Positions 7,760 to 63,890 of a stretch of DNA of 64,000 bases are shown piece after piece (the first letter of the stretch is position 1; each line of letters starts with the position of its first letter). Made by a program: the position numbers and the translations under genes. The DNA comes from Blastocatellia bacterium. Lineage in GTDB: Bacteria > Acidobacteriota > Blastocatellia > RBC074. The notes under the pieces were generated by a model, which was not told where the DNA came from, made no database searches, and saw nothing but the letters and a program-made list of their open reading frames with translations. Where the stretch lies: assembly GCA_035331565.1 (NCBI GenBank), contig DAOLKO010000019.1:67343-131342 (forward strand), written 5' to 3'.

Positions 7760-7902
7760 CGGTGTTGTTCCTGAATTGATGATTTCATTGAAAACTGGAA
7801 ATTGAAGAACTCTCTTACTCCCCGCGCATCATCGCACAGCTTCATTGAGTGGGGAAGCTGTGACGGAAATTGCGAAACGTCGTTAAGTTCTTTTCCGTCT
7901 GA

Positions 7903-46452: not shown

Positions 46453-47832
46453 TTACTTCAGCTTCGCGATTTCCTCGAAATACTTGATGAACATCTTGAT
46501 GCCGCCGGCGGTTTGCCCCCAATCGTAGTTTTCATTCTTGGCGTGATACCCGTGTTCGGGCAGGCTCAAACCGAGGAAGGTGATCGGTGCGCGCAAATGT
46601 TTTTGCATTGTGACCACCGCGCCGATGGAGCCGCCTTCGCGCGTGAACGCAGGCTCTTTGCCGAAGGCGAACTTCATTGCCACGCGCGCCGCGTCGGCAT
46701 AAGCGCCGGTGAAATCGCCGGAAAACGGTTCGAGCGATTGAATCGCTTCAACCTTCACGTCGGGATTGATCTCCTTGACGAAATCCTTGACCAGCTTGGC
46801 GATTTTGGCCGGGCGCTGATTTGGAACCAGGCGCGTGCTGATCTTGGCTTCGGCGCGATAAGGCACTATGGTTTTCACTCCCGGGCCGCTATAACCGCCG
46901 GTGATGCCGTGAACTTCAAAGGTCGGCGCGGCCATGAACGCCTTCAGCACGTCAGCTTCGGTTTTCAAATTCGGGCGCAGCGATTTGAGTTCGTGCGCTT
47001 TCATATAGCCTTTGTTGGTGAAGCCTGAATTGACGAAGCTGTTGAGTTCGTCTTTTGTCGGCGGAACCACATCATCGTAAAAGCCAGGGATTTTCACCTT
47101 GCCGGTTTTGGCGTCGTAGCATTGACTGATGACCTGCGCCAGTTCGCCAATCGGATTGCGCGCCGCGCCGCCCACCAAACCCGAATGCACGTCTTTGGCG
47201 TGCGTTTCCAGTTTGAAGAGAAATCCCTGCAATCCACGCAAGCCATACGGCACGGCAGGTTGTTTGCGCGAAATCCAGATCGTGTCGGAAACCAGAATCG
47301 AATCGGTAATGAGATGGCCTTTGTTGCGTTTGACGAAGTATTCAAAGTGCGGCGAGCCGATTTCTTCTTCCAGTTCCCAGATGAATTTGAAGTTGAGCGG
47401 CAAGCCGTTCTGCACCGCGTAACGCACGGCCAGCATTGCCGTCAGCGCGGGGCCTTTGTCGTCGGTCGTGCCGCGTCCTTCGTAACGGTCGCCGACCTTA
47501 TGAAACGTGAATGGCGCTTTGTTCCATTCCGAAGGATCAGCCGGTTGCACGTCCAGATGGTTATAGATGGTGACTGTCGGATACTTTTGATCCTTGATGA
47601 TGGAACCCATCACCACTGGAAAGCCCGGCGTCGGCACGGGTTCGGCTTTCGCGCCCAGATCGCGCAAGTATTGCGAAGCCAGATCGGCGCAACGGCGAAT
47701 GTCCGGCAAACGTTCCGGGTCGCTGCTGATGCTCGGCGTTTCGACCAGTGCGGCCAGTTTGTCTTCAAATTCGTCGCGTGAACTGCGTATGTAGCTGTCA
47801 AGGTTTTGGTAAAGTGGTGCTAGGTTAGCCAT
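46453..47832 (-). CDS. M20-family metallopeptidase (dipeptidase / ArgE-DapE-CPG2-like)
   Basis: HLDVQPAD...GRGTTDDKG metal-binding and catalytic motifs and an M20 dimerisation domain; 459 aa. Confidence 0.85.
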
Positions 47833-47845
47833 GTCTTCCTTTCGG

Positions 47846-48202
47846 TTAAAACAGGTAGTAAAAACGATTTATGTACTCGGCAGCTTCGCTCGCTTCCCAA
47901 ACCAGATACAAGCTGTTTGCCGCATGACTGACTGAGAAACTTTGTGAGACGAGAATCAATCCCGGAGATAACTGGCCGATCACGAAATTGGCAAAGTGGT
48001 TGGGCATTGTCGCGAAATCGTGTGAAACCACGATACGGCCTTCCCGCGCAGCCAACGCCAGGACTTCTTCATCCGGCACGCCCTTGTGCAAGCCAATGGC
48101 TGGGGCGGTTTGAAAATCTATTGATGGATTTAGCCGAAGTACGGCATCAATCATGTCTTGATTGAAATCATTGTCGGCCTGAAATTTGATCTTCATCGTC
48201 AA
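47846..48202 (-). CDS. DUF5615-family (PIN-like/Mut7-C-like) putative toxin
   Basis: 118 aa with ...[16 protein letters not shown], typical of DUF5615. It overlaps the upstream DUF433 gene by ~35 nt. Confidence 0.6.
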
Positions 48203-48548
48203 GTGGGCGGCGCAATGCCTGGATCAGCGTGTCCATTTTCTGGTGAATGTCAGGGTAAAGCTCCCGTGCCTTTTTGGCGAACTCTCTTTCCTGAGCCTGC
48301 ATTTGCAAAAGGTACTCATCTACTTGTTCTTGATGGTCAAGATAATAAGCGAGCGCGCCCAGGACTTGCGATAGTTTGAGAACCGGAAAGCTATGTTGAA
48401 TTGATTCCGGCGATTGTTTTCTGCGCCAGGCATAGACAATGGAGTCAAGTGAAACGCGAGTGTCCGCGACACGATAAACGCCATCACGATATTCAACATA
48501 GGGCTGCTCCAACTGCATTTCCGTTGCTTGCATTGCGTTGTCCTCCAC
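48168..48548 (-). CDS. DUF433-like putative antitoxin partner
   Basis: 126 aa. The core YRVADTRVSLDSIVYAWRRKQSPESIQHSFPVLKLSQVLGALAYYL resembles the DUF433 pattern (RI.v..vv...G.s.eeI...yP.L...i..al.Yy). It sits upstream of, and overlaps, DUF5615, which is the usual pair order. Confidence 0.55.
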   Translation of the reverse strand: MEDNAMQATEMQLEQPYVEYRDGVYRVADTRVSLDSIVYAWRRKQSPESIQHSFPVLKLSQVLGALAYYLDHQEQVDEYLLQMQAQEREFAKKARELYPDIHQKMDTLIQALRRPLDDEDQISGRQ

Positions 48549-48593
48549 TACGATTTCCGAATACAGGCAATGTAACCGCTCATCTCAAGCCAA

Positions 48594-50486
48594 TCAACGG
48601 TAAAAACGCAGATTATCGAGTTCCAGCCAACCGAATTCGCCGGCTTTTCGCGCAATCTCGAAACTGAGCATCAACAGATCGTCGCCGCGCCAAACGGCAT
48701 TCGATCCTTGTACGGGGCGCAGCGAAGCGAAGTCAATCGTGACGGTTTGCCATTGCGGCGAAGCCTTGAACGGCGCTTGAAAGGTTGCGGTTGAATAAGT
48801 CGGAACCAGCAAACGGTAATCGCCGTCGCCGCGCACATCGAACTTCAATCCGCGAAATTCGCGCACGTCCACGGGTTCAACCGCGCCGTGACTGAGCGGC
48901 AGATTGATGCGCCCGAACGGGCGATCTTTTTCCGCCATTCGCACAGTGACGGAAAACGCCTGATTGCCGGAGTCGCGCGCGATTTTGCCGAAAATCATTT
49001 TTGAAGCGTCCGTTCCGGCATCGCTGGAATTAACCCACAACGTATCAATCGAACTTCTGCCGTTCGGGTTTTCAAAATCATCGAGCGATTCGCGCACTTT
49101 GACGGCGGGAATCGGCGACAGTCCCGGCGCGGCAATGTCGCGCGCGAGCTTTTCGCGGTCGAGTTCGCGTCCGCCCAAAAAGATGTGTTTGATTTTTTCG
49201 ATGTCGGCGATGTTTTTCAGCGGCTCGCCCGCCAGCAAAACCAGATCGGCGAGCTTGCCCGGCGCGATGGTTCCGCGTTCGCCATCTACTTTGATGGCGC
49301 GCGCCGCGTTGCCGGTGGCGGCGGTGATGGCTTCAAGCGGCGTCAATCCGCCCGCGACCAGCAATTGCAATTCGCGCAAAGTGGCCCAGCCGTGATGAGT
49401 GCCCGTAACGCCAGCGTCCGTGCCTGTGCCGAATGTGATGCCCGCTTTGCGCAGCGTGGCGGTATTGCGCTGCAACACGCCCCAACGCCGAATGCGCGGC
49501 GCATCGCCGTTTTCAGCCGAACCGGCGGCAGGTTTGAGCGGCGGATTTTGCGGCGGCACGAGCGGAGGCTGCATTGCCGCCAGCGCCGCCGGGTCGAGTG
49601 TTGCCGCCAGCGTCGGCGAAAGAATGTCTCGCCCACGCGGTTCGTAAACGGCCAGCGTCGGCGCATAAGTCGTGCCTTTCTCCTTCATCAACTTCAACAA
49701 CTCTTCGTCCGCGTCTTTGTCGCCGACTCCATGTGCGATGACATCCACGCCGGAGCGCGCGGCGATCTTGGCTTTGTCGAGCGTGACGGTGTGCGTCAAA
49801 ACTTCCAGACCGTGCTTGTGGGCTTCGGCTACCAGCGCCGTCAGCGTGTCTTCGTTCATGCTGGTCATGTCGGGCGCAGCGCCGTAGCGCCAACCGTCTG
49901 TGAAAACCTTGATGACATCCGGCTGATAAGGCACAACGCGGCGCACGGCGGCGACGGCTTCGCGCGGCGAGGTCACTTCCAATGAAAAGAAATCGCCGCG
50001 CCCAGCCTCCGCGCCATGACCGCCGGGCGTACTCAACCGCGCAGCCAGACTGATGCGCGGCGCTTGGATCACGCCGGTTTTAATCAGCCGCCGCATCGGC
50101 TCGAAGGTTTCGGGATAAGTGCCGAAGTCCACAACGGAAGTGACGCCGCAATAAAGATAAGCTTTCAGATTTTTCGGCCAATCGCTGTTCGCACCGCGCA
50201 CGGAAGAGTAGGGAAGATGCGTGTGCAGATCGAAGATGCCCGGAATCAGCGTCAAGCCATCGGCATTGATGACGCGCGCACCGGCAGGAGGTTTGGCATC
50301 GGCGGCCAACACCGATTCAATGCGTTCGCCGCGAATGACGACCGTCGCCCGGCGAGATTCCGCGCCGGTTCCATCAACGACAGTTGCGCCGGTGATGGCG
50401 AAAAAATCAGTTTGAGTTCCCTGGCGCACCGTTCCGGTGGAAAAAATAGCGATGGCCAACAACGCAAATTGTAATAAGCGGTTCAT
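48594..50486 (-). CDS. secreted amidohydrolase-family metal-dependent hydrolase with extra C-terminal beta-sandwich domain
   Basis: GGAGA RBS; signal peptide [16 protein letters not shown]. Amidohydrolase motifs are present (DLHTHLPYS, ...HGV..., ...GTDAGV...HHG). The ~180-aa C-terminal domain is of unknown type (CIA30/CBM-like by pattern). The ORF-track 65-aa N-extension was rejected. Confidence 0.8.
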
Positions 50487-50664
50487 GTGATCTCCAAAAT
50501 GATGAAGTGGAAACGCAGTGGAAATTGATGCCGTCAGTTTTGGCCAAGTGTCGCTGTTCGTCAATGCACAAAACACACTCCCGCAGGGAAGATCGCTTCG
50601 CGCTTTTTGGAGCGGATGCTGCGGTGGCGAAGCCGTGCGTACGTTTCTTGGGACGGTTGAACAT

Positions 50665-53610
50665 TTAGAGTTTGGGTTCAATAACCTGTGTGATGCGTGG
50701 GATTTCCATGCTGGGAGTGGACAGAGATTGGCGTAACGCGGGCAGAGCTTCTGCCTGAAGTTCGGTCACGTTGGCGTAACGGCGAACGGGATTTTTGGCC
50801 AGGCATTTTTGCACGACGCGATTTAGCGGAGAGGTTTCCGGGATCGAACCCGGCAGTTGATAGTGTTGCTGGATGATGGCTTGGGCCAGTTCGTGAAAAT
50901 TGCGGCCTTGAAACGGACGTCGGCCCGTCAACATCTCAACCAGCATGACGCCGAGGGCGAAAATGTCGCCGCGTTCGCCGGCCGCTCCGCCCGCCAGCAG
51001 TTCCGGGGCCAGGTAATTGGGCGTTCCCATAATCATGCCGGGCGAAGTCAGCAGCAGACTTTCCGCGTTGTCCAGTTGCCGAAGTTTGGCAATTCCGAAA
51101 TCGAGCAATTTGATGACTGCTTGTTGGTCAGCCTGAAAAACCAAAAAGACGTTTTCCGGTTTCAAATCGCGATGAATGATGCCCGCGCGGTGCGCTGCAC
51201 CGACTCCTTCCAGGATTTGTCCGAACCAATCGGCAATCAACGGCGGCGGCAACGTGCCGCGTTCAGTCAGTACCTGACGCAGGGAACTGCCGCGCAAAAA
51301 CTCCATCACCAGGTAAGCGCCTTCCGCTCCGGCGCGTCCGTAATCATGCAACGCGACGATGTTCGGGTGATTCAATCGCGCGGACAAGCGGGCTTCCCGT
51401 TCAAACCGGCCCAGAGCTTCGCGGTTGCCGAACAATTCGCCGGTGATGATTTTGAGCGCCACCTGCCGATGCAGACGCAAGTCCGTGGCTTCATAAACCG
51501 CGCCCATTCCGCCTTTGCCGATCAGTTTTTCCAGTCGGTATTTGCCGTCCAGTGTGCGTTCAATCGGCAACGACAGCGTCAATGCCTGTCCGCAATCGTT
51601 GCAGTAAACCGCCGGGCTGTCGTAGCACAGGCCGCAATTCGGGCATTCTTTAATCAGGTTGATGCCGTCGCTGCTCAAATGCGCCAGCACCTGATGTTTG
51701 ATTTTCAATTCCTGATGGACTTGTTCTTTGAGCGCAAGGTTTTCGGTGACGACGGCCATTTGGCGTGCAACGGCTTGTAACAGGCCGCAGTCTTGCGCCG
51801 TGTACTCTTCTTCCGAAAGCTTTTCGCCGAGCATCAACAGCCCCAGCAATTTTTCCTCGGAACTTTTCAGCGGGACGATCAAACAAACGCCGAGGCTTGT
51901 CAGCCGGCGTTGTTCTCGCGCCGGAAATTCGCCGAATTGCGGCAAGGAAATGCCCAATTCTCCGGTTTGTCTTTCCAACGCATGCAGCAGCCCGATGCTC
52001 AATGGGATTTCCTGTTCCGGCGAGGTTTCGCCGGAACAATAGCTCAAGGCCAATTCATCTTTTCCGCCGACTCGGTGATACAGATATAACCGCGCCGGAT
52101 GAAGCGCATCCAGCAGTTGTCGGCCGACGAAGCCTGACATTTCAGGCAAGGCTTTGAATTGCTTGATCTTTTCCGACAGGCTGAGCAGCAATTGTTCGCG
52201 GTCATAAGCTTCGCGGAAAAAACGACGATCCACCCAATGTCTGACCTGTCGGCGGAATTTCAAGCTGAGTGCGGCCAACCCGATCAACAGCAGATTGGCG
52301 GGTTGTGAAAACAGCAGTTCCTTCAGAGTGCGGTTTGGATTGGCTCCGACGCTGAAAATCAGGCCGAGCAAGGGTAGCGCCAGAATCACGCCCAATACGT
52401 TTTTGGCCAGCAAGTATTGCAAGCCACGTCGTAACACCACATCCACTTCCAGCGCGCGATGTTTGAGAATGGCATACGCCCAGGCCACCGCCACAATCAA
52501 AGGCGAAATTTCTCCCAAAATGTTCAACGCCGTTACAGTCTGCCGAGCTTTGGTATCGTCCAAACCGGCGGCCAATGCCAGAAAGCGTGTTAAATACAGC
52601 AGGATGTTCGGAATGAACGCCGCCAGCGAACCGACGATCATCAATTTGATGCGATTCCGTTGATCGGCCTGCGTCACCCGGCGGTAGTTATGCAGGCAGA
52701 CCGCGCAGGTCGCCAGCAAACCCAGGACGATATAAGCATCGTTGGCCAGGCGCGTATTGCGGAAGAAAGTCAGGAGTGAGGCCGTCAGCGGAAGGCCGAA
52801 ATAGACCGCACCGACGCGGTAAAGGCCAACCGTGTAAATCGCTCCGCCCCAGGCCGGCAGTGTCCAACGGATTACTGACCAAAGTCGGGCAGACGGCGCT
52901 CCCGCCGGAAACGTGTAATAAAGATTGTAAGTCAGGGCGATAAAGAGCGTGGCACCGGAAATCAGAAACTGCGCAAACACCATCTGCAATCCTGTGCCGT
53001 CCAGCAGATAGGCCAGAAAGTCGGTGGCATTGGAATACAGATAGTTCAGCGAAAAGGTAATCATCGCGACGAAAGCCCAACGCGCGCTTCGGTCATAAGG
53101 TTTGAACAAGCCTATCAGCAGCGCCACGACGGCAAACGGAAAGGAGCAGAGAAAGGCACTGACAATTATTCGTAACCGCCTGCGTGCAAAGACGCTGCCA
53201 TCCGTTAATCGAAACGGCGTCATTTGCAGATCAACGGTTTTTTCGATTCCTTGCCGGACGATTCGCAAAGTGTAAATTGTCCCGGCGGGCTGCGCCTGAA
53301 CGGCGTATCTGACGGTTCGATCCCACTCAATCGGCAAAGTGATTGTTCCCCGGCTAACCGTAAGAACCTTGTCGTCCGGTAACAGCTTTCCCATTGCCGG
53401 CCCGTTCGGATCAATTTCCGTTACGAAAATGCCGTCTCCGCGACTTTCCAGTTGATAGCCGAATTTGTCCCATTGGCTGTATTGATACGTAATCAAAAAA
53501 TTGAACGCGAAGATACCCAAGGTCACCACGCCTGCAAGCGCGACAAACCAGAAAAACCAGGGTTGGCCACTCATCCTGGAAGGGATGTTACGAGTGGTCG
53601 TCTCAGGCAT
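50665..53610 (-). CDS. sensor Ser/Thr protein kinase: ~10-TM N-terminal membrane domain + GAF-like domain + C4 zinc ribbon + C-terminal Hanks kinase
   Basis: The kinase has GKGGMGAVY...ALK (VAIK-like), [14 protein letters not shown] and PNYLAPE. Upstream of it sits [20 protein letters not shown]. The N-terminal 400 aa are polytopic. AGGAGG RBS. Confidence 0.85.
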
Positions 53611-53772
53611 AAGGAATAGCCTCCTACAATGTCACGGATTCTAACTTTGTTGCTTGGCAACTGTTAATAGCAGAGCTATTGCCGGAAGAGAAGGCTGCGG
53701 CAGTTCAGGATGAGAATTCTGCGTCACACCGAGGCTTTGGCAAGACCGCGCGGATGCGTTTTGCCGCCAGTG

Positions 53773-54309
53773 CTAAAACGAAATGCTGTAACTCACGCCC
53801 GGATGGCGGCTGTTTGCCAGGACGAAAGAAAAGATGTGGCGTCCGCGCGCGTAATTCAGCAGCGGATGCACGCGCACGCCGTCGAAAATCACCAGTGAGG
53901 AAAAGCGTTCGGTGAAATATACGTTCAACCCGGCGACGGGCAGAAAGCGTTCGTCGTGCATGCTGTAGGCCACGCCCGCGTAAGGCGCTATCGGCAAGCC
54001 TGTGGCTTCTTTCAGATTTTTGCTGAGCGTGGCGTAAAACGATTGTCCATCCGGAGTGCCTATGCGGTCGGAGCTGGTGCCGACGATCAAGGCCGGGCGC
54101 TTGCCGGTTTCGGTCAGCAGCAGCAGGTTGGCAATCGGATTTACTTTGGCGCTGCCTTTCGCGCGCGGATTGACTTCGATTCCGGCGGTGAAGCGCGGGT
54201 GAAAGCGATAGGTCAGCGTGTTGCGAATCTGCGCGCGCGGAACCACGCCGGGAATCACTCGCAATCCGTAAGTCCACCGCTGCCGGTTTTGATTTTCTGC
54301 CCCGCTCAC
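53773..54309 (-). pseudogene. OMP-like beta-strand ORF lacking a signal peptide and ATG (possible remnant or mis-started gene)
   Basis: 178-aa frame ending ...GVSYSISF (the C-terminal aromatic typical of beta-barrel OMPs). It begins at GTG immediately after two in-frame stops that follow the TlpA-like gene in the same reading frame, and has no signal peptide. Confidence 0.35.
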
Positions 54310-54336
54310 GGCGCGGCCTTCGCCCGGTCAGAGCGG

Positions 54337-55251
54337 TCAACTCGGAACGCTGGAAGTTTGCGTCTGTTTTTTCGCGGCCATCAAATCACGTTTGGCTTCG
54401 CTGTCGGCCTGAGCAATGAGTTTGTCCAGGTGCTTTTTGATCTCTTCCTGCGTGATGACGCCGGGAAAAAGCGCGGTGATTTTGCCGTCGCGTCCGATGA
54501 TAGCTGTGCCAGGCAAAGCCGGGCCGAGTCCGAAGCTCGCCATTTGTTCGGTGGTCGCACCTAGCCAGATGGGAAAATTGATCGCGCTATCTTTGATGAA
54601 CTGGCGAACGGCTTTGACTTCGGCGAGCGTGTCCGCCGAAGCGCCGACGACTTGCACGCCCAGCGCTGCATATTGATTTTGAATCGCTGCCAGATCAGGC
54701 ATTTCTTTTTTGCACGGCCCGCACCACGTCGCCCAAAAATTCAACACGACAATGCGCCCGCGCAAACTGTTTAGGTTTTGCTCGACGCCGAACAGATCTT
54801 TCAATGCCAGTTCGGCGTCTTTGCCGATGAAGGCCGAAAGGTCTTGGCCGGGCGGAGCGGCAAGCACGTTGAGTTCATCCACTTTGACGAATTGTTTTTT
54901 CTTCGCCGCGCGTGTTGCGCCTGTGATTTCGACTTTCTTGCCGACGAATTCCAGCCAGTTTTTGCCGGGCTTTTGAAACTTGCCTTCTTCGAGTTGATAG
55001 AACGTCGTTTTGCCGGCCTCGCCCATCACTGCCAGCAAAGTCGGATCGCCTTTGGCAATGCAGCCTGCGGCTTTGGCCAGGTCGGTGGGCGTGCCGTAAG
55101 CCACTGTGCGGCGGTCGGCTTCCGCCCAGCAATCTTCGCAGCAAACGATTTGGCCAATTAGTTTGGTTGATTGCGTTGATTTGGCGGGTGTTTGTGCCGC
55201 AGCTGTGCAGGCCAGACAACAAGTCAGGAAAAGCAAAAATAGATTTTTCAT
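54337..55251 (-). CDS. TlpA-like periplasmic thiol:disulfide oxidoreductase (thioredoxin fold, WCGPC) with Cys-rich N-terminal domain
   Basis: Signal peptide MKNLFLLFLTCCLACTAAAQ. The N-terminal domain contains CCEDCW...GCIAKG. The C-terminal part has the thioredoxin/AhpC-TSA fold with the active site WATWCGPCKKEMP. Confidence 0.8.
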   Translation of the reverse strand: MKNLFLLFLTCCLACTAAAQTPAKSTQSTKLIGQIVCCEDCWAEADRRTVAYGTPTDLAKAAGCIAKGDPTLLAVMGEAGKTTFYQLEEGKFQKPGKNWLEFVGKKVEITGATRAAKKKQFVKVDELNVLAAPPGQDLSAFIGKDAELALKDLFGVEQNLNSLRGRIVVLNFWATWCGPCKKEMPDLAAIQNQYAALGVQVVGASADTLAEVKAVRQFIKDSAINFPIWLGATTEQMASFGLGPALPGTAIIGRDGKITALFPGVITQEEIKKHLDKLIAQADSEAKRDLMAAKKQTQTSSVPS

Positions 55252-55352
55252 TGCGCTGTTCTTTGTATTTTTGAAATGAAGACGGGTCGCGGACATCTTT
55301 GTCCGCGACCCCATGCGAGTGGGACGCTCGCGCTCCTGGATTTTCCCGGAGC

Positions 55353-55769
55353 TTAGGATTTGTGTTTGGCGCAGCAGGAACCGCCGGAGCAGCAAGCGCC
55401 GCCGGAGCAGCAGCTTTCGCCATTGTTGGAGGCGCTGTTTTTGGCTGCATCACCTTTCGCTTTTTTAGCGGGCTTGGAGTCGGCGTGGTGAGCGTCGGCT
55501 TTGTGTTCGCAGCAGGAACCGCCATTGCAGCAGGCCGCGCCGGGTTTGCAGCAGTCTTCGCCGTCTCTGGCGGCTTTCTGCTCACTGCAGGATTGATGGT
55601 CTTTGTCCGCCGCGCAGCAAGCGCCGCCGTCGCAGCAGGCCGCGCCCGCCGAACAGCAAGCGGCTTGGCCGTGATTGGCATGTTTATCTTGAATGGTTGG
55701 ACTGGATGCGTAAGCGATTCCCGCCAGTCCGAAAACGAGCACAACGATTGCGAGTTTGATCTTAGACAT
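55353..55769 (-). CDS. secreted Cys-Cys-doublet-rich small protein (metallothionein-like; nine xCCx motifs plus a His cluster)
   Basis: AGGAGA RBS 5 nt upstream; signal peptide MSKIKLAIVVLVFGLAGIAYA. The mature region has ACCS, ACCD, ACCA, DCCK, ACCN, SCCE, SCCS, ACCS and SCCA, plus HKADAHHAD. Confidence 0.6.
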   Translation of the reverse strand: MSKIKLAIVVLVFGLAGIAYASSPTIQDKHANHGQAACCSAGAACCDGGACCAADKDHQSCSEQKAARDGEDCCKPGAACCNGGSCCEHKADAHHADSKPAKKAKGDAAKNSASNNGESCCSGGACCSGGSCCAKHKS

Positions 55770-55856
55770 TTCAATTCTCCTGATTTTGATAAAGGCATTT
55801 TTGTTCAACCGGCGGTTGCCGGCTGTGTTGAAAAAGCGTGCGGACACACTTCGGCC

Positions 55857-56366
55857 TTAAATCAGGAAAATGCAGCAGTGCAGGTAAGTGTCTTGCTTGT
55901 GGCAGGGTTGAATGCCGTAGGTAAAGCGAGCGGAGTGTTTGGCCGGTGTTGCAGTTTGCAGAAACAGCGCGGCGTGCGCGGTTGCTGCTTGCTGCGAATG
56001 GAATTGTGCCGCACTGGGAACTTCGGCCAGCGGCGCGCTTAGAATGCAGCACTCATTGTGACAAGGTGCGGAGTTGGAATGTTCAGACTTGCTTGAGCTT
56101 TTGGAACAACAATCGTCTTCGCCGCTGACTTCGTGTGATCGAGTTGCGCAACTTTCCTCAGCGGCAGCCTGAACCGGGGCGACGAGCAACTGTCCGCAGC
56201 AAAACAAACAATTCATTCCACTGACCCAAAAGGCCAAAACTGTGACGAGCAGTCGTTTTTGCCGGAATTGTTTTGTGGAAGATTGCTTGGTCATTGCCTT
56301 GTTTGCAGTGTGCGTTGCGTCCTTTTCCCCAATTGCGAGCTTGAATCTCGAAAGAAGCAAGCTCAA
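55857..56366 (-). CDS. second Cys-Cys-doublet protein (FCCG, DCCS, ECCI, HCCI), unknown function
   Basis: ORF directly downstream of the enolase-superfamily gene on the same strand. It may start at the internal MTKQ... (56294), which gives a TM/signal-like segment LLVTVLAFWVSGM. Its reality is less certain. Confidence 0.4.
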   Translation of the reverse strand: MSLLLSRFKLAIGEKDATHTANKAMTKQSSTKQFRQKRLLVTVLAFWVSGMNCLFCCGQLLVAPVQAAAEESCATRSHEVSGEDDCCSKSSSKSEHSNSAPCHNECCILSAPLAEVPSAAQFHSQQAATAHAALFLQTATPAKHSARFTYGIQPCHKQDTYLHCCIFLI

Positions 56367-56381
56367 TGCCGAAACTTAGCT

Positions 56382-57629
56382 TCAAGCTGTGACGACGGTT
56401 GATTTGGCGATGAATGCCTGGTCAATCGCCACTCCCAGGCCAGGCCCTGTCGGCACTTTCAACATTCCTTTTTCGCTTTTCAACGAAGACGAATCGCTGC
56501 TCACGGGTAATGTGTCTTCTTCGCCTTTGTATTCCTGGTGAGCGCCGCAATTTTGTACAACCGAGGCGAAGTGCGCAATGTACAGATAACCCAATCCGCC
56601 GCCGGACATATGCGGTGTGCAATCCTTGCCCGCTACAGCCGCCATGCGCGCCACTTTCATCGAACGAATCAGTCCGCCGAAATACAACAAATCAGGCTGA
56701 ATAACCTGCGCGACATCGCGTTCGATAATCCAGCGGAATTGCCGCAGGCTCATTTCCTCTTCGCCCAGTGCAATGGGGATGGTCAGCGTGTCGGCAATTT
56801 TTTTGGTTTCCTCGTAATAATCGAAAGGCACAGGCTCTTCCAGAAACCCTAGCTTATGTTCTTCCATCAGCCGTCCGATTTTGACGGCCATCGGCACGTC
56901 GTAAGAGCCGTTGGCGTCGGCGTAAATCGCAAAGTTGTCGCCGAAGGTTTTGCGCGTCAGCGGGATCATGGCGTGGTCGCGTTTGGTGGAAGCGTCGTCG
57001 TAACGCATTCGTGCGCCGAGCCGGAACTTGATGGCGCGCGCCCCTGTTTCGGCGACGATTTTTTGCAGGTAATCAATCTCTGCTTCCGGAGTGTTGCCGC
57101 GATTGCCGCTGGCGCGGTAAACCGGAATCTCGCGGCGGATGACCTTGCCGAATAGTTCGCCCAAAGGTTTGCCGGCGGTTTTGCCTAGCAAATCCAAAAT
57201 GGCGATTTCGACCGCCGCCACGCTCACCCAAAAGGGTAAGCCCTGCCATTTGTAATTCGACTGCGCCAGATAGACTTCGTTGAGCAGGCTTTCCAAATCG
57301 CGCGCGTCTTTGCCCAAAAAACTCGGCGCGACTTTTTTGACCAGAATCGGATAGGCCGCGCTCATCACTGCGCTGTGTGCTTCGGAAAAGCCCGTCACAC
57401 CGTCCGCTGAGCGCGCGCGCACCAAATAGCTTTTGCCGTTTTTCAGCAAATCCAGCGCGGCGATTTTGATGGGTTGTTTAAAGAGTTCCCGGCGCAAGAC
57501 CGGCGCGAGCATGGCCTTTTCCAATTTGTCGGCAAGTTCGTTGTTTTTGGCCTGAGCAGTCGGCAAGGCCAAACCGGCCAAACCAGCGGCGGTGCTGGTT
57601 TGAAGAAAGTTGCGACGCTTGGGGTTCAT
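56382..57629 (-). CDS. enolase-superfamily enzyme (mandelate racemase / muconate-lactonising / sugar-acid dehydratase-like) with twin-arginine signal peptide
   Basis: N-terminal RRNFLQTSTAAGLAGLALPTAQA is a Tat motif. The enolase-superfamily barrel pattern is present (KIGRLMEEHKLGFLEEP...ADTLTIPIALGEE...IQPD). Confidence 0.8.
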   Translation of the reverse strand: MNPKRRNFLQTSTAAGLAGLALPTAQAKNNELADKLEKAMLAPVLRRELFKQPIKIAALDLLKNGKSYLVRARSADGVTGFSEAHSAVMSAAYPILVKKVAPSFLGKDARDLESLLNEVYLAQSNYKWQGLPFWVSVAAVEIAILDLLGKTAGKPLGELFGKVIRREIPVYRASGNRGNTPEAEIDYLQKIVAETGARAIKFRLGARMRYDDASTKRDHAMIPLTRKTFGDNFAIYADANGSYDVPMAVKIGRLMEEHKLGFLEEPVPFDYYEETKKIADTLTIPIALGEEEMSLRQFRWIIERDVAQVIQPDLLYFGGLIRSMKVARMAAVAGKDCTPHMSGGGLGYLYIAHFASVVQNCGAHQEYKGEEDTLPVSSDSSSLKSEKGMLKVPTGPGLGVAIDQAFIAKSTVVTA

Positions 57630-57649
57630 TTTTGCTTGCCCTGTAAGAA

Positions 57650-58345
57650 TCAGCCGACGAATTTCATCGTGGTTTCGCCCAGCTTGACCAGATCGCCGTT
57701 GACCAGCGGATAAGGTTCCTGCGGTTTCAGGCGGTTGCGTCCGTTGATGACGGTTCCGTTGGCGCTGCCCATGTCTTCGATGAAGTATTGATGGCCGCGC
57801 GTGGTGATGCGGGCGTGGCGGCGTGAAATGCGCGAGGCCGGATCGTAGCGCGACAAATCCACGTCCGGGCGAATGCCGCGATGTGGGTCGAGCCGTCCGA
57901 TCATGATTTCGCCATCGGGCAACAACGGGAAATTGGCGTCCGTGTCCATATCCATGACGATCAACATGGCTGCGGAGCGTTCAGTGCTGGGTGCGCGTTC
58001 GCCGAAATAGATACGGTACAAATCGCTCGGCGTCATTTCTCGTCCGCACTGATGGCAGGGTGAAATGGGCGAACTGCTGGTTGTGCCGACGTGCGTGGAG
58101 TACAACTCGTTTTCGCGAACCAGATTGTCCAGGAAGGATTCGCGTTCGCCTTCGGACATCACGTCCCAATCGAGCTTGCGGCTGTTGCACAGTTGGCGCA
58201 ATTGCGTGACGGCGAAATCCAGTCGCGAGGCGCGCTGCACGCGGTCGTCCTCGCTGAGCATCACCAGCAGCGTTTGTTTGTGTTCGGGCGCGAGTTGATT
58301 CACCCATTCTCGTAATTGTTCTTCGATGGAAGCCCCGTTTGGCAT
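57650..58345 (-). CDS. FHA-domain protein
   Basis: C-terminal FHA domain: GR...D...SRRHARI...[20 protein letters not shown]...[12 protein letters not shown]. The N-terminal part is unique. Confidence 0.75.
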
Positions 58346-58393
58346 TCTGTCACCTCGATTGGGATTCTAGCCGACTCGCCCGAATCGCCAAAA

Positions 58394-60775
58394 TCAGTTT
58401 TCCCTTTGTTCAGACTTGACAGCGGATTGCGGCTTCACGACCAGCGTGATGGGTTTGGCCGGAAAGTCCGAACGTTGCGGCGAAGTCGTTTCAATTCTGC
58501 CGACGACGAAAATCGGCTGTTCCATTGGCTTGACCCAGCTTTCCGCCGCCAGCGTGAATTGCTGCGTTGTTTCTTCTTCTGTGATTAAGACGCCGTTCAA
58601 CCCCACGTCGGTGACGATCACGCCGTGCGGCAGATTGCGAATGTCGAAAGGCACGCGCCCGGCAAAACCGCGTTCGCGTTTGATCTTGATCGAAACCACT
58701 GCTTTGCCGCCCGGTTCCAGTGCGACTTGTTCGGCGTCAGTCCAGACCAGCAATTCCGGCGCGGGCGCAACGGAAACCACTGCGATGCGCTCATCGGTTC
58801 TCAATTGGCGCGTGGCGGTTTTGCCGTTGATAGTCGCTGTTGCCTGAATGCGCAGCGGAAAACTCTTTTGTGCATCAGCGGCGGCTGAGAGTCTGACAAC
58901 CGTCGAAGTCTGCCCCGAACGAATCACGCCTTCGCCTGCTGCAAAGCCCGCAGGCACGTCCATCAGTTTCACCGTGATGTCGCCGTCGAAACCGTCGTTG
59001 CGAAAGGCCGTCACCGTGATCGGCAGCGAACCGCCTTGCGGCACATTCGGATTTTCAGGATCGGCGAAAAGGATGAAGTCCGGTTCCGGTTCGTGAATGG
59101 TCAGCCGGTAAGCAAAGCGTTCGCCCTGCATTCCGCGCACATCGCGAATCCGCACCAGATAATCGCCGTCAGCGGGCGCTGTGAAATTCAACTTGGAATC
59201 CTTGCCGTAAATCGGCCCGCCGTCGTCATTGCGAAAGTAAAACGTCGTTACCGGTAAGCCATTCGACGCAAGCTTCGTGTCCGGCGAATGCAAAGAGACT
59301 TTGTAAATCGTCAATCCGTTCGGATGAGCTTCGGGTGTCGTGTCTTCGTAAGTCAGACGTTGACCCTGAAAGCTTTTGAAAGAGATGTCTTCGTCAGGCG
59401 TTTTCGGCAGCACTTCGACTTGCACCAGTTCGTTGCCCGCCATCAGGTAGTCGTTGACGTGAATGCCGTTCCAGGTGTTGATGCGAAATCCGCGCGAGGC
59501 CGAATCGCGATCATTCAAGGTCATCTGCGTTTCCAGCAAGGCGCGGGCGACGATGCGCGGAATCGGATTGCCTTTCGCGTCCAGCACTTCAATTACCGCA
59601 TCGAGCGGTGAACCGAATCGCTGCGCGCCGACTTCCAGCACGATGCGCTGTCCTTTGCGCGCCTGAAAACGATAAACGTCTTCGGCATTCAGCCCGGTTG
59701 GCGCGGCGGCGGGATTGAAGATTCGCCCGTTGATCGTGACCGGCCAGGAAACGCTTTGCGGCGTGGTCAATGTAGTTGGTTTTGATTGCTCCATCACTTC
59801 GGGGTGCGCGCCGACGGCGAGCGCCAAAGTGTTGATTGTCTGTCCCGCGCCCGAACTCATCGCCAGCGGTTTGCTGTCGGCAAAACCGATTCGTAGTTGC
59901 GGCAGGACTGTCGCTTTGGGCGCGTCCAGATTGAAGCCGAACGCGGCGACTTCGGTCGCTGTGTTTTCCCGAACGCCCAGCGGAAAGGCGTGCGTCAGGT
60001 AAGGCAACTCGCCTATGTTCAGGCGATAGCCGAACGCGCCCACCTGGCCTTGTCTTTCCAGATCGCTGATGCGCAGGACGTAGCTGCCGTCTTGTTTGAA
60101 AGTGTAACCGAGCAGGGAATCGCGGCTTGCGCCGTTGTCGTTGTTGGTCGCAAGCTGCGCGCCTTTGTCATCGAACAAAGTCAGAACCGAATCGAGCCGC
60201 GAATTAAGCATTGAAGCGACGACTTCAAAAACAATTTGTTGACCGGCTCTGGCCGTGAATTTGAAAAAGTCTGTGTCGCCGCGTTTTTGTAATTCGCCGA
60301 CGATGGTCGAGGGCAGGGAAATCGTTTGCGCTTCGGCAATGGAATCGTTCGCCTCGCGCTCTTTCACTTCCGGCAGCGCGCCGACGACGATGCGCCCTAG
60401 ATTCGTTGTGCCGAGCGGCGTGCGAATGCGAAAGCCGTAAATGCCCGGCAAGGCTTCGGCGGAAATAGCGGCTTCGATGGTCAGCCGATGTTTGGTGGAT
60501 TTGTCCACGATCAACGTCGCCGTAGGGCTGGAGCGGGTGTGCGGTTCGCGCACCAATTGTGAATTGAGTTTGATTTTGGCCGCGATGCCGGGCTTGCTCC
60601 AAATCACTTCGCCGGCGTCTGTCAGGTTATAGCCATCCACGGTGAACGTCGCCGTGGTTCCGCGCTGCGCGCCCATTGGTGAAGTGGCCGTCAGATAAGG
60701 CTGCGCTACTTGCGCTCGCGCGGTGATTGCCGCAGCCATCAGCAATCCACAGAAAAGCCAGAGTTGTTTTTTCAT
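58394..60775 (-). CDS. large secreted protein with repeated pre-peptidase-C-terminal-like (PPC) / Ig-like beta-sandwich domains
   Basis: GGAG RBS; signal peptide MKKQLWLFCGLLMAAAITARA. It has repeated ~100-aa modules containing ...DxYxFxAxxGQxIxxEV... (the PPC/bacterial pre-peptidase pattern). It sits 10 nt downstream of the WD40 gene. Confidence 0.7.
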   Translation of the reverse strand: MKKQLWLFCGLLMAAAITARAQVAQPYLTATSPMGAQRGTTATFTVDGYNLTDAGEVIWSKPGIAAKIKLNSQLVREPHTRSSPTATLIVDKSTKHRLTIEAAISAEALPGIYGFRIRTPLGTTNLGRIVVGALPEVKEREANDSIAEAQTISLPSTIVGELQKRGDTDFFKFTARAGQQIVFEVVASMLNSRLDSVLTLFDDKGAQLATNNDNGASRDSLLGYTFKQDGSYVLRISDLERQGQVGAFGYRLNIGELPYLTHAFPLGVRENTATEVAAFGFNLDAPKATVLPQLRIGFADSKPLAMSSGAGQTINTLALAVGAHPEVMEQSKPTTLTTPQSVSWPVTINGRIFNPAAAPTGLNAEDVYRFQARKGQRIVLEVGAQRFGSPLDAVIEVLDAKGNPIPRIVARALLETQMTLNDRDSASRGFRINTWNGIHVNDYLMAGNELVQVEVLPKTPDEDISFKSFQGQRLTYEDTTPEAHPNGLTIYKVSLHSPDTKLASNGLPVTTFYFRNDDGGPIYGKDSKLNFTAPADGDYLVRIRDVRGMQGERFAYRLTIHEPEPDFILFADPENPNVPQGGSLPITVTAFRNDGFDGDITVKLMDVPAGFAAGEGVIRSGQTSTVVRLSAAADAQKSFPLRIQATATINGKTATRQLRTDERIAVVSVAPAPELLVWTDAEQVALEPGGKAVVSIKIKRERGFAGRVPFDIRNLPHGVIVTDVGLNGVLITEEETTQQFTLAAESWVKPMEQPIFVVGRIETTSPQRSDFPAKPITLVVKPQSAVKSEQREN

Positions 60776-60785
60776 TTTGACTCCG

Positions 60786-62138
60786 TCACTTGTTCGCCAA
60801 TTTCTTTCCGGTCTTCGGATCATAAAAGGCAATCGAACCATCGTAACGCCCCACCGCCAACCGTTTGCCGTCGGCGCTGAACGCCAGCGCGAAAACCCAA
60901 TCCGGCTGCATTTCGCCGCCGTGAAGTTCTTCGAGCTTGGAGGCGTCCCACAGTTTCAAAACCTTGTCCGCGCCGGTGGACGCCAACGTTTGGCCGTCGG
61001 GCGAAAAGGCTATGAGATTGATCGCGTCTTCATGGGCGATCAAGGATTTGATTTGCCGCCCTTCGGTTTCGCCCAATTCCCACAGGCGAATCGTGCGATC
61101 AGCGCCCGCGCCGGCCAACAGTTTGCCGGAAGAATGAAAGGCAATGGAGTTCATCGCGTCCAGTCCGTCGCTGAGCGTGAACAGTCGCTGCCCGGTCGTC
61201 ACGTCCCAAATCTTGACCGTGCGATCCGCCGACGCCGACGCCAGCCGTTTGCCGTCGGGACTGAACGCGATGCTGAACACCGCGTCGGTGTGGTCTTTCA
61301 GCGTTTTGATTTCATTGCCCGAAGCCGTGTCCCACAGCTTCACCAGCCGATCGTAACTGCATGTGGCCAGCATCTTTCCGTCGGGACTGAAGGCCACGGC
61401 GAAGATGTTGTCGCGATGACCACGAATCGTGCGCACTTCCTTGCGCGCAGCCACATCCCAAAGCTTGACTTCGCCGGATTGCGATGGATTGCCGCCCGCT
61501 GCCGCCAGCAGCTTGCCGTCAGGACTGAACGCCAGACCGCGAATCTGATTGGCGTGGCCGCTGAGCTTGCCGACGGATTGACCGTTACCGGCGCTGAGCA
61601 ATTCGACTGTTTGATAACGTCCAACGGCAAGCAGCGAATTGTCTGCGGTGAAGCTGAGCGCGGTGATCGCGGCATTGACCGGCACGGTCGGTTTCAGGTC
61701 GGGAGCGGAAATGACTTTGCTAGTCGGAGCGAGAGCGGCGACATCTTTGTCCGTCATCGGCCCCGGAGCGCCCGCGTCAATCCAGGATTTGATGAGTTTG
61801 AGTTCCTCTGCGCCGAGCGGATCGTCGAGCAGCGGCATGCGCGGTTTGACGGTTCCTTCGATCATCCTGACCAGCAGGCTCTCGGCGCTTTTTCCAGGCA
61901 CGAAGGCCGCGCCGCGCTGGCCGCCGGCTTTCAGCGACTCATAACTTTCCAGATTCAATTCGCCTCTGCGCACGACGTGATTGTGACAGGCCACGCACTT
62001 TGCCTGAAAGAGCGGTTCGATTTGTTTGGCGTAACTCGGCGGAGTTTGATTGGCCTGCGTTGCCAGGCCGGACAACGCCAGCAGCCAGCCGATCAAAGTT
62101 GCAGCCCGCGCGAGGCGGCGCGGTTGAATGTTCGACAT
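60786..62138 (-). CDS. PSCyt1 (planctomycete-type cytochrome c) domain + WD40 beta-propeller protein
   Basis: Signal peptide, then KCVACHN (CxxCH) in a PSCyt1-like domain (ESLLVRMIEGTVKPRMP). About seven WD40 repeats follow (GHxDxIxxVAFSPDGKxLAS...WD). Confidence 0.8.
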   Translation of the reverse strand: MSNIQPRRLARAATLIGWLLALSGLATQANQTPPSYAKQIEPLFQAKCVACHNHVVRRGELNLESYESLKAGGQRGAAFVPGKSAESLLVRMIEGTVKPRMPLLDDPLGAEELKLIKSWIDAGAPGPMTDKDVAALAPTSKVISAPDLKPTVPVNAAITALSFTADNSLLAVGRYQTVELLSAGNGQSVGKLSGHANQIRGLAFSPDGKLLAAAGGNPSQSGEVKLWDVAARKEVRTIRGHRDNIFAVAFSPDGKMLATCSYDRLVKLWDTASGNEIKTLKDHTDAVFSIAFSPDGKRLASASADRTVKIWDVTTGQRLFTLSDGLDAMNSIAFHSSGKLLAGAGADRTIRLWELGETEGRQIKSLIAHEDAINLIAFSPDGQTLASTGADKVLKLWDASKLEELHGGEMQPDWVFALAFSADGKRLAVGRYDGSIAFYDPKTGKKLANK

Positions 62139-62285
62139 AAATTTCTGCGATGGAAATACTGCCTGGAATTCGATAGGCCGGAGCGAAATCTCCGTCCTGT
62201 TCGTTGTGGGATGCGACGAACGAAGGGTACGCCAATTCTTTTGTCAGGTGAAGAGAAGCAGCAACGATGGCGACGCAAAAGATCG

Positions 62286-63890
62286 TCAACGCGAATTGGA
62301 CAAACGCGCTTTGGCTTCGGCCAATCCGATTTGAGCGCGCCGCGATTCCGGGCGCAATTTCAGAGCTTCGGAAAAATCGCGTTCGGCGGCGGCGTAATCT
62401 TTTTGATTCAGGCCGAGTTCGGCCAATGCCAGCGCGCCCTGAATTTTTTTCAACTCGGCGATGCGAGCGGCGACGGTTGCCGCATCCGCCGCTTGTGGAT
62501 TGTGTTTCAGATACTCGTCCAGCAGCCTGACGGCTTCGACATAAAGTTCATCCTGTTCCTTTGCCTGCGCTTGCTGCAATTGCGGATTGGCGGTTGGTGC
62601 GACGGCGGTTTCCCTCACGTGAGGCAGCGCGCCGTTGACTGACGTGCCGGTCGGAGAAGCTTGTGTATGTTGTTGCGACCAGATGAAGTAAGCCGTGCCC
62701 GCGCCTATCAAAATCAGCACAGCGACCACGGCCATTATCGGTGCGGTGCGGTTTGCGCCGGTTGCTTGGTTTACGGGCGGTAATTGCGCGGCTGCTCTCG
62801 CGGGACTTGGTTTGGCAGGCGATTGCGCGGGCGGCGTTGCCCGATTCGGTTGCGCGGGTTGAGCAGTTGGGCGGACGGCAGTGGAATTGGTCGGTTCGAC
62901 GGGCGAGGCTTCCGCCGTCAACGGCGCTAGATTGGTTTCATAACTGATCCGTTCCGTCAGCGAATGCGTGGCCACCGGTTGGCGCGCGGGCGTGAACTGT
63001 TCGGTGGGCAGATTGGCCGACGCGCTACGCTGTTCGTATTCCATCAGCGCGTCCAGAAACTCCGCCGCCGAAGCGAACCTGCGATCCGGCATTTTTTCCA
63101 GTGAGCGCATGACAATCGCCGCCAGTGCCGGCGGCACGTTCGGTTGCACGGTGACGATGGGCGGCGGCGACATTTCAATGTGGCCTCGAAACACTTCGTA
63201 TTCGGAGCCGGTTTCGGAAAAGGGAAACGGCAGCCTTCCGGTCAGGGCTTCGTAAAAGGCCACGCCCAGGCTGTACAAATCCGAGCGCGCGTCCACGTCC
63301 AGACCGCGAATCTGTTCCGGCGACATATATTCAATCGTGCCGGGATTGAAGCCCGTTCGCGTCATTGTGCGTTCGCCGGCAAGTTTGACGATGCCGAAGT
63401 CTGTGATTTTCAGATTGGCTTTGCCGTCGAGCAGCATATTGGCTGGTTTGATGTCGCGGTGGATGATGCCTGTGTGTTGGCGACCGGATTCATCCACGTA
63501 GCTGAAATTATGCGCGTAATCGAGCGCCGAGAGCGCTTGTTTGAACAGCGGAATCGCCTGATGAGGCGCGAGCGCGCCTTGCCGCTGAATCAAATCGCGC
63601 AAGCTCATGCCGTTCACGAACTCCATCACCAAATAATAGTTTTCCGGCGAGGTGAAGAACTCATAAACGCGGACAATGTTCGGATGATCGAGTTGCGATT
63701 GAATGTAGGCTTCGCGGACGAAGCGCGCTTTCAATTGTTCCTGCGCTTGCGGCGGGAAAGAAGACAGCAGAATGGATTTGACGACGACTTCGCGCGGCAG
63801 TTTTTGGTGACGCCCGCGATAGACAGCGCCCATACCGCCTTGTGCCAGTTCGCTGTTGATTTCGTAATTGCCGATGATTTTTCCGATCAT
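62286..63890 (-). CDS. Ser/Thr protein kinase (N-terminal Hanks kinase, Pro/Ala-rich linker, TM, C-terminal TPR-like domain)
   Basis: GGMGAVYRGRH...VVKS, HRDIKPANML, DFGIVK and TIEYMSPE. A TM segment (IMAVVAVLILIGAGTAYFIW) and C-terminal TPR-like helices follow. Confidence 0.85.
   Translation of the reverse strand: MIGKIIGNYEINSELAQGGMGAVYRGRHQKLPREVVVKSILLSSFPPQAQEQLKARFVREAYIQSQLDHPNIVRVYEFFTSPENYYLVMEFVNGMSLRDLIQRQGALAPHQAIPLFKQALSALDYAHNFSYVDESGRQHTGIIHRDIKPANMLLDGKANLKITDFGIVKLAGERTMTRTGFNPGTIEYMSPEQIRGLDVDARSDLYSLGVAFYEALTGRLPFPFSETGSEYEVFRGHIEMSPPPIVTVQPNVPPALAAIVMRSLEKMPDRRFASAAEFLDALMEYEQRSASANLPTEQFTPARQPVATHSLTERISYETNLAPLTAEASPVEPTNSTAVRPTAQPAQPNRATPPAQSPAKPSPARAAAQLPPVNQATGANRTAPIMAVVAVLILIGAGTAYFIWSQQHTQASPTGTSVNGALPHVRETAVAPTANPQLQQAQAKEQDELYVEAVRLLDEYLKHNPQAADAATVAARIAELKKIQGALALAELGLNQKDYAAAERDFSEALKLRPESRRAQIGLAEAKARLSNSR

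Follow-up and report, generated by a model that had tools for sequence, protein, structure and literature searches.

We analysed a 64,000-nucleotide stretch of contig DAOLKO010000019.1 (positions 67,343 to 131,342, forward strand) from the Blastocatellia bacterium assembly GCA_035331565.1, hereafter referred to as the window, and found four consecutive genes, A, B, C and D, on its minus strand at 53.7-56.4 kb. Genes C and D, annotated as a TlpA-family protein and a hypothetical protein, very probably form a single selenoprotein gene, in which two UGA codons read as selenocysteine (Sec, U) give a UxxU motif that joins a thioredoxin-fold domain to an outer-membrane beta-barrel. Genes A and B encode proteins rich in Cys-Cys (CC) pairs and can be regarded, with high confidence, as real, linked genes of novel families. 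A preliminary description of this stretch had reported three open reading frames (ORFs), two for CC-rich proteins and one for a TlpA-like protein. Their minus-strand placement and description were accurate, but the fourth gene, D, which lies just outside the piece described and is in frame with the TlpA-like ORF, had been missed. The TlpA-like ORF had also been taken at face value, whereas the evidence points to its continuation through two UGA codons into the barrel. The features of the locus are as follows.

55857..56294, minus strand: gene A, 145-aa bitopic membrane protein
55353..55769, minus strand: gene B, 138-aa secreted protein with three hexa-Cys modules
55284..55311, minus strand: terminator-like hairpin directly 3' of B, 12-bp stem with 9 GC pairs, then a T-rich tail
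53773..55251, minus strand: proposed single selenoprotein gene C-D, 492 codons plus stop
54340-55251, minus strand: gene C as annotated, 304-aa TlpA-family protein
54859..55167, minus strand: N-terminal 4-Cys domain of C, residues ~29-131
54457..54819, minus strand: thioredoxin-fold domain of C, TlpA/ResA/DsbE type, WCGPC active site at 54712-54726
54328..54339, minus strand: TGA-CCG-CTC-TGA, as read Sec305-Pro-Leu-Sec308 (UxxU)
54299..54317, minus strand: candidate selenocysteine insertion sequence (SECIS) hairpin, stem and loop CGUGA
53776..54309, minus strand: C-terminal 12-stranded outer-membrane beta-barrel domain (former gene D), C-terminal end ...YSISF
53773-54309, minus strand: gene D as annotated, 178-aa hypothetical protein

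In-frame UGA codons at the C-D junction

The product of C has a signal peptide, a domain containing IVCCEDCW and a WCGPC motif, and scored above the Pfam cut-offs for Redoxin and AhpC-TSA, in agreement with the TlpA-like WCGPC protein and Cys-rich CCEDCW domain described earlier. Its N-terminal domain is beta-rich with four invariant Cys (C37, C38, C41 and C64; motif VVCCxDCW...C) and was modelled with moderate confidence (predicted local distance difference test, pLDDT, of 72). This domain had no PDB sequence match, and when folds were searched with the C model, the thioredoxin domain accounted for most matches, so that nothing was learned about the 4-Cys part. After the thioredoxin domain, the model places a helix of ~29 residues (residues 268-296).

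Gene C terminates at a TGA, a second in-frame TGA follows nine nucleotides on, and the annotated start codon of D, a GTG, is again in frame 18 nt further. A conserved block (GTN CCN AGY TGA CCN CTY TGA CCN GGN GAR GGY CGC GCC GTG RGC GGG RC) was found in 77 of 77 distinct junctions, and both TGAs were present in all ~90 related loci with sequence there (77 distinct junctions, drawn from genomes and metagenomes, and their duplicates). The block was altered in only three variants, at the second inter-TGA residue (Leu to Val or Ser) or at one loop base. The C-D frame of ~490 codons holds exactly two stops, these two TGAs, in 31 of 31 loci. Thus, C-D shows the conserved in-frame UGA with open frame on both sides by which selenoproteins are recognised. 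The best database relatives of C likewise end at TGA (120 of 120; ORFs of ~301-309 residues, annotated as TlpA-family). We further scanned metagenomes with D and obtained at least 579 stretches, from which 80 soil loci were retrieved; D was directly preceded by C in every retrieved metagenome locus, and C-D proved far more widespread than B. One locus, L083, carries tandem copies of the whole C-D gene (346-1809 and 1945-3408), each with TGA-x-x-TGA and the downstream hairpin described below. Since the spacer block is invariant in length, the shared frame of C and D is not independent evidence from locus to locus, and the fusion is therefore argued from homologues with CxxC and from the missing signal peptide of D.

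Barrel domain and Cys-form relatives

Gene D encodes no signal peptide of its own. Modelled as a chain separate from C (AlphaFold2, alignment of 47 relatives), its product forms a 12-stranded beta-barrel with a mean pLDDT of 95.7, which begins ~27 residues after the predicted helix 268-296 (counted to barrel strand 1). The best structural matches were the small porins KdgM and NanC; the structural neighbours also include PcoB, EstA (fold similarity 13.7) and NalP (13.6). At the sequence level, D had no Pfam or NCBIfam match even at E = 1-10, did not match Pfam Autotransporter or the KdgM/NanC family model, and the barrel was not detected in plasmid collections.

A HMMER search of 1.84 billion representative proteins yielded 225 relatives of D. 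The relatives encoded as a single ORF carry CxxC immediately ahead of the barrel, at the columns of both TGAs. In P0026 (…LVPSCALCPSPTVSGV…), CALC is aligned to U-P-L-U, and CAGC takes the same place in P0120 and P0155, where it follows a signal peptide (…PTCAGCAGEAR…), and in P0110 and P0125, where it comes after YHS domains, as it also does in P0172. Only the first Cys is kept in P0150 (CVGW). Judged from these alignments, Cys stands where C-D has UGA, which is the classical sign of a selenoprotein with Cys homologues. The core of the barrel family is CxxC plus barrel: minimal members have ~20 residues with CxxC before the barrel, and other Cys-form relatives are fused to three YHS/TRASH metal-binding domains.

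A conserved hairpin downstream of the UGA codons

Selenoprotein genes are also expected to carry a SECIS hairpin shortly downstream of UGA, and a candidate was found at this position in C-D (GGCCGCGC-CGUGA-GCGGGGC, window 54317-54299). It consists of 3 bp, a G.G mismatch, 3 bp and the loop CGUGA, with the consensus GGYCGCGC-CGUGR-GCGGGRC; the five-base loop includes GU, and the GTG called as the start of D falls within it. The stem begins 10 nt past the second UGA and 19 nt past the first. The SECIS of Escherichia coli fdhF lies ~11 nt from its UGA, and one element at such a distance could serve both codons. Third-codon positions vary freely (up to four bases) upstream of alignment column 32, whereas columns 32-50 are invariant apart from column 33, whose changes are matched without exception at column 49 (C-G in 69 sequences, U-A in 8). 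The hairpin cells are 100% paired, and this pairing and covariation were reached in 0 of 500 shuffles. In the Cys-form relative at locus L121, the corresponding nucleotides no longer form the hairpin. A larger hairpin (CCGCUC...GAGCGG) was also considered and rejected: it shows no compensatory change, is 94% paired with mismatches tolerated, and its supposedly paired third-codon positions vary freely.

Contigs with C-D also contain a second apparent selenoprotein family, in which an HMA-like CxxU domain, preceded by a signal peptide, is joined to a COG4313/Phenol_MetA_deg outer-membrane barrel. Its members are located as follows.

L034:2342-3828 (minus strand), L063:~6378-7805, L113:~5850-7337 and L112:~5668-7113: second UGA family, also present in L085, L087, L098 and L109

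The HMA-like domain of this family reads …G-Y-L-C-G-N-UGA-V-F-N-I-Q-K…, and annotation stops at the UGA. A hairpin located 13 nt after the UGA (AGAAGGC-CGUGA-GCCGUCU) is built like that of C-D, as 3 + mismatch + 3 with an identical loop, but its stem bases differ. Because the same type of hairpin follows the UGA of this second family, the SECIS reading of C-D gains independent support.

These observations bear on a rival explanation, namely that C and D are separate genes, that both TGAs are true stops, and that the conserved block is a regulatory or translational-coupling hairpin containing the GTG start of D. All public annotations split the two genes in this manner, and GAAGG located 8-13 nt before the GTG is a possible weak ribosome-binding site. 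However, this would leave D as an outer-membrane barrel that lacks a signal peptide, and relatives encode CxxC at both TGA positions inside one ORF. Coupling, moreover, does not explain two stops 9 nt apart that are kept in ~90 loci, and the same hairpin occurs after a single UGA in the HMA-like CxxC-type motif of another gene. We thus consider separate genes very improbable and favour one UxxU selenoprotein of 492 residues, most likely laid out as signal peptide, 4-Cys domain, TlpA domain, helix, Sec-Pro-Leu-Sec and barrel, in which we infer that Sec is actually inserted.

The Cys-pair families A and B

Gene B is preceded by AGGAG ~8 nt ahead of its ATG and begins with a type I signal peptide (MSKIKLAIVVLVFGLAGIAYA followed by SS, cleaved at …AYA/SS). 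The mature protein of 116 aa contains 19 Cys, 18 of which form nine CC doublets arranged as three hexa-Cys modules (CC-x4-5-CC-x-GG-x-CC) joined by Lys/Ala/Asp-rich linkers, together with a His cluster (HKADAHHAD). Nine CC doublets were reached in none of 200,000 shuffles of mature B (shuffle maximum, 8). The ribosome-binding site, signal peptide, nine doublets and His cluster noted earlier for 55353-55769 were all borne out by the sequence. Among 5.8 billion proteins we found 20 homologues of B, the named ones all from Blastocatellia or Pyrinomonadaceae metagenome-assembled genomes (MAGs). Their conserved columns are the Cys doublets, and the C-terminal module (CCxGGxCCxGGSCCAKHK) is the most conserved. 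No PDB sequence matched B below E = 0.1.

The gene A product has a short basic N-terminus, a transmembrane (TM) helix whose end reads NCLFCCGQ, and a periplasmic part with DDCC, ECCILSAPLAE and the C-terminal TYLHCCIFLI. This gives four CC pairs in total (FCCG, DCC, ECCILSAPLAE and HCCIFLI), and all four doublets ascribed in the preliminary description to an upstream ORF could be located here. Alignment of homologues best supports a start at the ATG at 56294 (145 aa) and not at the TTG at 56366, whereas the public annotation (PLQ88_08170, 119 aa) begins with MNCLFCC, within the conserved TM helix. Few homologues of A are found in databases because the gene is often not called, yet it lies directly upstream of B in essentially every locus. 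A-like genes with a TM helix containing C-x3-C-x2-H, a DCCP motif and a C-terminal PPLERLxxLRI also precede C-D, directly upstream of C in ~30 of the 43 metagenome loci that have enough sequence (a count from hidden Markov model (HMM) matches and inspection by eye). Gene A is therefore a common, constant partner of both B and C-D.

HMM searches of both A and B gave no Pfam or NCBIfam match, even at E = 1-10, which agrees with the earlier remark, made on the 55353-55769 protein, that no characterised bacterial family with its GxCC periodicity was known. The same description had regarded a lack of homologues with conserved Cys spacing as evidence against its proposal; we found instead that the Cys positions are kept in the homologues of both A and B, and the two CC proteins, described earlier as secreted, are genuine secreted or membrane-anchored proteins. 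In addition, substitutions between orthologues fall mainly at codon position 3 of the proposed frames. Judging by the conserved Cys positions and this codon-position bias, A and B are real genes and not chance ORFs.

We next examined the distribution of the pair. A scan of one genome per species detected 26 B loci, all but two in Acidobacteriota; the two exceptions are genes with a weak likeness to B, one in a MAG of Chthoniobacterales and one in a MAG of Armatimonadota. The short B-like proteins in these MAGs (L026:5328-6201 and L028:5472-6270) consist almost entirely of CC-x-GG-x-CC repeats, and upstream of each lies a small protein with a hydrophobic N-terminus and CC pairs, so the A-like/B-like pairing may extend outside Acidobacteriota. 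A and B are adjacent in ~25 Blastocatellia species genomes with otherwise differing neighbours, and in Pyrinomonadaceae the pair is set among unrelated housekeeping genes. A hairpin equivalent to that of the window was present 3' of B in 17 of 17 other loci folded, with no conservation of its sequence. As a hairpin always follows B, A-B is either a transcription unit of its own or attenuated ahead of C-D.

A small membrane protein followed by a secreted Cys-rich peptide, with its own terminator, would also fit a bacteriocin-like peptide with its immunity protein, or some other secreted peptide system that is strain-specific and has no relation to C-D. The pair is, however, usually single-copy (one MAG has two, L016 and L017) and occupies conserved chromosomal positions beside housekeeping genes across two Blastocatellia orders. 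Moreover, B is roughly net-neutral (counted from its composition), and A-like genes also accompany barrel and TlpA modules that lack B. We regard such a peptide system as extremely unlikely.

A proposed thiol/selenol system of the cell envelope

We propose that the locus comprises two linked units of a thiol/selenol envelope system that would capture and move soft metals such as Cu(I), Hg(II) or Cd(II). The first unit would be A-B with its own terminator, and the second C-D as one selenoprotein. Anchored in the inner membrane and exposing Cys pairs in the periplasm as well as where its helix ends on the outer side, A could serve as a metal acceptor or donor, while the secreted and largely disordered B may be a high-capacity periplasmic binder or buffer. 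Both UGAs would be decoded through the single SECIS hairpin immediately downstream. The UxxU segment would lie on the periplasmic side or inside the pore, because the number of barrel strands is even, and the pair could act at the periplasmic barrel entrance as a metal-binding or redox gate. The tethered TlpA domain would keep UxxU and the Cys pairs of the partners reduced and free of disulfide or selenylsulfide bonds. Vicinal Cys pairs serve Hg(II) hand-over in MerT and MerA. The data show that the genes are real, conserved and linked, that UGA corresponds to CxxC, that the hairpin is conserved and that D has a barrel fold; topology, metal specificity and transport direction are inferred.

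The case for metals rests on the relatives, which carry YHS, HMA-like, MerP-like and PCYCGC partners. In L034 and L063, the second-family gene has an A-like gene (C-terminal ...CCVFLI) on one side and a TlpA-like redoxin on the other, and in L112 and L113 it has a redoxin only. Directly after the paralogous barrel-redoxin module in the latter two loci are a secreted MerP/CopZ-like HMA protein (GMHCKTC) and a PCYCGC-family protein (L112:7651-7938 and L113:7834-8340). In L120, the barrel gene has a small CC-rich protein on its upstream side and a separate TlpA-like gene on its downstream side, and in L111 a P-type ATPase is located directly upstream of C-D. By analogy with these partners, a role in handling thiophilic metals is the best-supported reading, and we would put the chance that the system handles soft metals at even or slightly below. 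For the whole interpretation, with A-B and the C-D selenoprotein working in a soft-metal envelope system, the chances seem evenly balanced.

Several observations weigh against this interpretation. The U-A variants of the hairpin probably form one clade, which would make them a single compensatory event. The folding energy of the 31-nt hairpin (z = -1.7) is not clearly better than that of shuffles, although folding energies are uninformative in this GC-rich junction for all hairpin versions and were not used as evidence. An Rfam search of the junction returned no match even at E <= 10, and, apart from the selD fragment in L121 described below, neither selA, selB, selC and selD nor a tRNA-Sec was found in the window or in 0.9 Mb of collected loci. 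Diselenides are harder to reduce than disulfides, so the TlpA domain may not keep UxxU reduced. Within the window, no metal sensor, efflux pump or mer/cop genes lie beside the cluster, whose neighbours are an FHA protein, an enolase-superfamily enzyme, a Ser/Thr kinase and an amidohydrolase. Finally, C-D is missing from 14 of 24 A-B loci, B is missing from most C-D loci (present in only three or four metagenome C-D loci), and a strong GC-rich hairpin with a T tract separates B from C in every locus examined.

Because B and C-D often occur without each other and this hairpin stands between them, their functional coupling is weak. The preliminary description had taken the two CC proteins and the TlpA-like protein as one functional unit. 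Recurrence beside the TlpA-like gene holds in a subset of genomes, but an obligatory unit does not, with C-D downstream of B in 10 species genomes out of the 24 that allowed a judgement. One locus without C-D, L004, has a 54-codon remnant (6506-6670) resembling the C-terminal helix of C directly after B, and this remnant may be the trace of a later deletion of C-D from that lineage.

With regard to the Sec machinery, a selD (selenide, water dikinase) fragment was detected in L121 (5795-6059), 4.7 kb from the Cys-form (CALC) barrel gene, and this fragment adjoins a two-component system and a TonB-dependent receptor. Literature searches on Sec in Blastocatellia returned nothing relevant.

Alternatively, the system might serve redox chemistry and not metals, with UxxU and TlpA acting as an oxidoreductase in peroxide or hypochlorite detoxification or in a disulfide-exchange relay, and A and B as its substrates or sacrificial thiol buffers. 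The TlpA/ResA-type fold with WCGPC and the absence of metal genes from the local gene context fit this alternative, and Sec is found mostly in redox-active UxxC, CxxU and UxxU motifs of thioredoxin-fold proteins (examples in PMC13188914). Yet CxxC/UxxU here belongs to the barrel family and not to the thioredoxin fold, the domains fused to that family or encoded beside it are of metal-binding types (YHS, HMA-like, MerP-like and PCYCGC), and an outer-membrane barrel has no obvious purely redox role. We consider a purely redox system unlikely.

The barrel could also be an autotransporter or FapF-type translocator that exports the TlpA passenger or unfolded, reduced B, so that Cys pairs at the surface cross-link or bind ligands. 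EstA and NalP do appear among the structural neighbours of D; the best matches are nevertheless the small porins, minimal family members have no passenger, ~27 residues lead from helix to strand 1, B is absent from most C-D loci, and the Autotransporter model was not matched. We consider export of this kind improbable.

Under the soft-metal interpretation, a Sec-gated outer-membrane channel fused in cis to its reductase would, together with A and B, amount to a selenium-dependent trans-envelope relay for soft metals and apparently the first such conduit; this most specific version is a fair possibility, though less likely than not.

Comparison with known systems

We further compared the four proteins with characterised systems. 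C shares the thioredoxin fold and CxxC active site with the TlpA, ResA, CcmG (DsbE) and ScsD reductases and is recognised by the Redoxin and AhpC-TSA family models. Its scores, however, fall far below the NCBIfam equivalog cut-offs (ResA, 100.4 bits vs 170; TlpA, 61.9 vs 230; DsbE, 39.1 vs 123). On these scores C is to be placed in a distinct subfamily of TlpA/ResA-type proteins. It differs from TlpA/ResA in the extra 4-Cys N-terminal domain and, if the junction is read through, in the UxxU that joins it to an outer-membrane barrel. Among the called genes beside the cluster, there was no CcdA/DsbD-type gene.

The closest parallels for C-D are predicted Sec metal-handling proteins (NF041115 UxxU_metal_bind, Sec MerT-like proteins and Sec P-type ATPases; PMC13188914). 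UxxU selenoproteins, one of them metal-binding, had thus been predicted earlier (PMC13188914), and C-D, as read here, would resemble them in having two Sec in a CxxC-type motif with Cys-form homologues, a single downstream hairpin that would serve both UGAs and a proposed soft-metal ligand role. In contrast, C-D has no sequence match to them, its motif lies at the N-terminal entrance of a barrel and not in an HMA or thioredoxin fold, and its lineage is one of aerobic soil Acidobacteriota, unlike theirs. No match to the C-D architecture was found in the table of that review or in NCBIfam.

The D barrel is weakly similar to PcoB/CopB, and PcoB also has a metal-binding N-terminal extension. This extension is Met/His-rich and does not contain CxxC or UxxU, and PcoB has no thioredoxin domain, unlike C-D. 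Compared with KdgM/NanC porins, FapF and autotransporter beta-domains, D shows 8-15% identity, and none of these has CxxC/UxxU or a thioredoxin passenger. The CC pair of A at the outer end of its TM helix can be likened to MerT, and MerP-like HMA proteins occur in related loci. In the MerP-MerT relay, a membrane helix bears a vicinal Cys pair that receives the metal from a periplasmic CxxC-type binder. There are, however, no merA, merR or merT genes here, A has a single TM helix and cannot itself transport, and B does not have the HMA fold.

High Cys content is shared by B with the C-termini of plant HMA4/HMA2 and with metallothioneins (SmtA/BmtA and MymT). B differs from all of these in being secreted and not cytosolic and in its regular CC-x4-5-CC-xGGx-CC module, with no shared sequence. 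The signature of bacterial metallothioneins (SmtA/BmtA) was not found in B, which had no Pfam/NCBIfam match at E <= 1, and a literature search on periplasmic Cys-Cys metallothionein-like proteins returned nothing relevant. CC dipeptide repeats are reported to bind Zn and Cd in plant HMA4 (PMC6394093).

Gene neighbourhood

The gene order of the surrounding region (window 46453-63890) is common to other Blastocatellales loci (L001 and L006) and comprises a PSCyt1/WD40 protein, a PPC-domain protein, an FHA protein, A-B-C-D, an amidohydrolase and an M20 peptidase. The window has two further, inserted genes, encoding an enolase-superfamily protein with a twin-arginine (TAT) signal (56382-57629) and a 981-aa Ser/Thr kinase with many TM helices (50665-53610). 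In one Pyrinomonadaceae genome, an aquaporin (MIP) gene and a low-molecular-weight (LMW)-phosphatase/ArsC-like gene lie directly upstream of A-B-C-D (L003:4188-5341), with PhoU/PHO4 downstream; at this single locus, a link to arsenic or phosphate is possible. EgtB-like genes (DinB_2 + FGE-sulfatase) were found near barrel genes at L036:3024-5422, L037:149-2547 and L120:298-2519. Their partner is an EgtD-like methyltransferase in L120, as in ergothioneine synthesis, and a glycosyltransferase in L036 and L037, presumably resembling the senB/senA arrangement for selenoneine.

Implications for the biology of soil Acidobacteriota

None of the component folds is new. The two Cys-pair families, A and B, appear to be undescribed, as do the family of CxxC/UxxU barrels, the linking of a thioredoxin reductase domain to an outer-membrane barrel by a selenocysteine pair, and the apparent reliance of abundant soil Acidobacteriota on Sec at the outer membrane. 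To our knowledge, soil Acidobacteriota, an abundant and mostly aerobic phylum, are not known for selenocysteine use. If the C-D reading is true, it reveals a systematic annotation error: at least 579 metagenomic stretches and the 120 best relatives have been annotated as a TlpA-like protein cut short and, separately, an orphan hypothetical protein, and hundreds of 'TlpA family' and 'hypothetical protein' gene pairs are mis-split. Two selenoprotein architectures would be added, thioredoxin-UxxU-barrel and HMA-like CxxU-COG4313 barrel. Moreover, A and B may bind Cu, Hg or Cd at high capacity, which would make them relevant to metal biology and to bioremediation. Together, these findings would place selenium chemistry in the outer membrane and point to selenium-dependent metal or redox homeostasis in soil.

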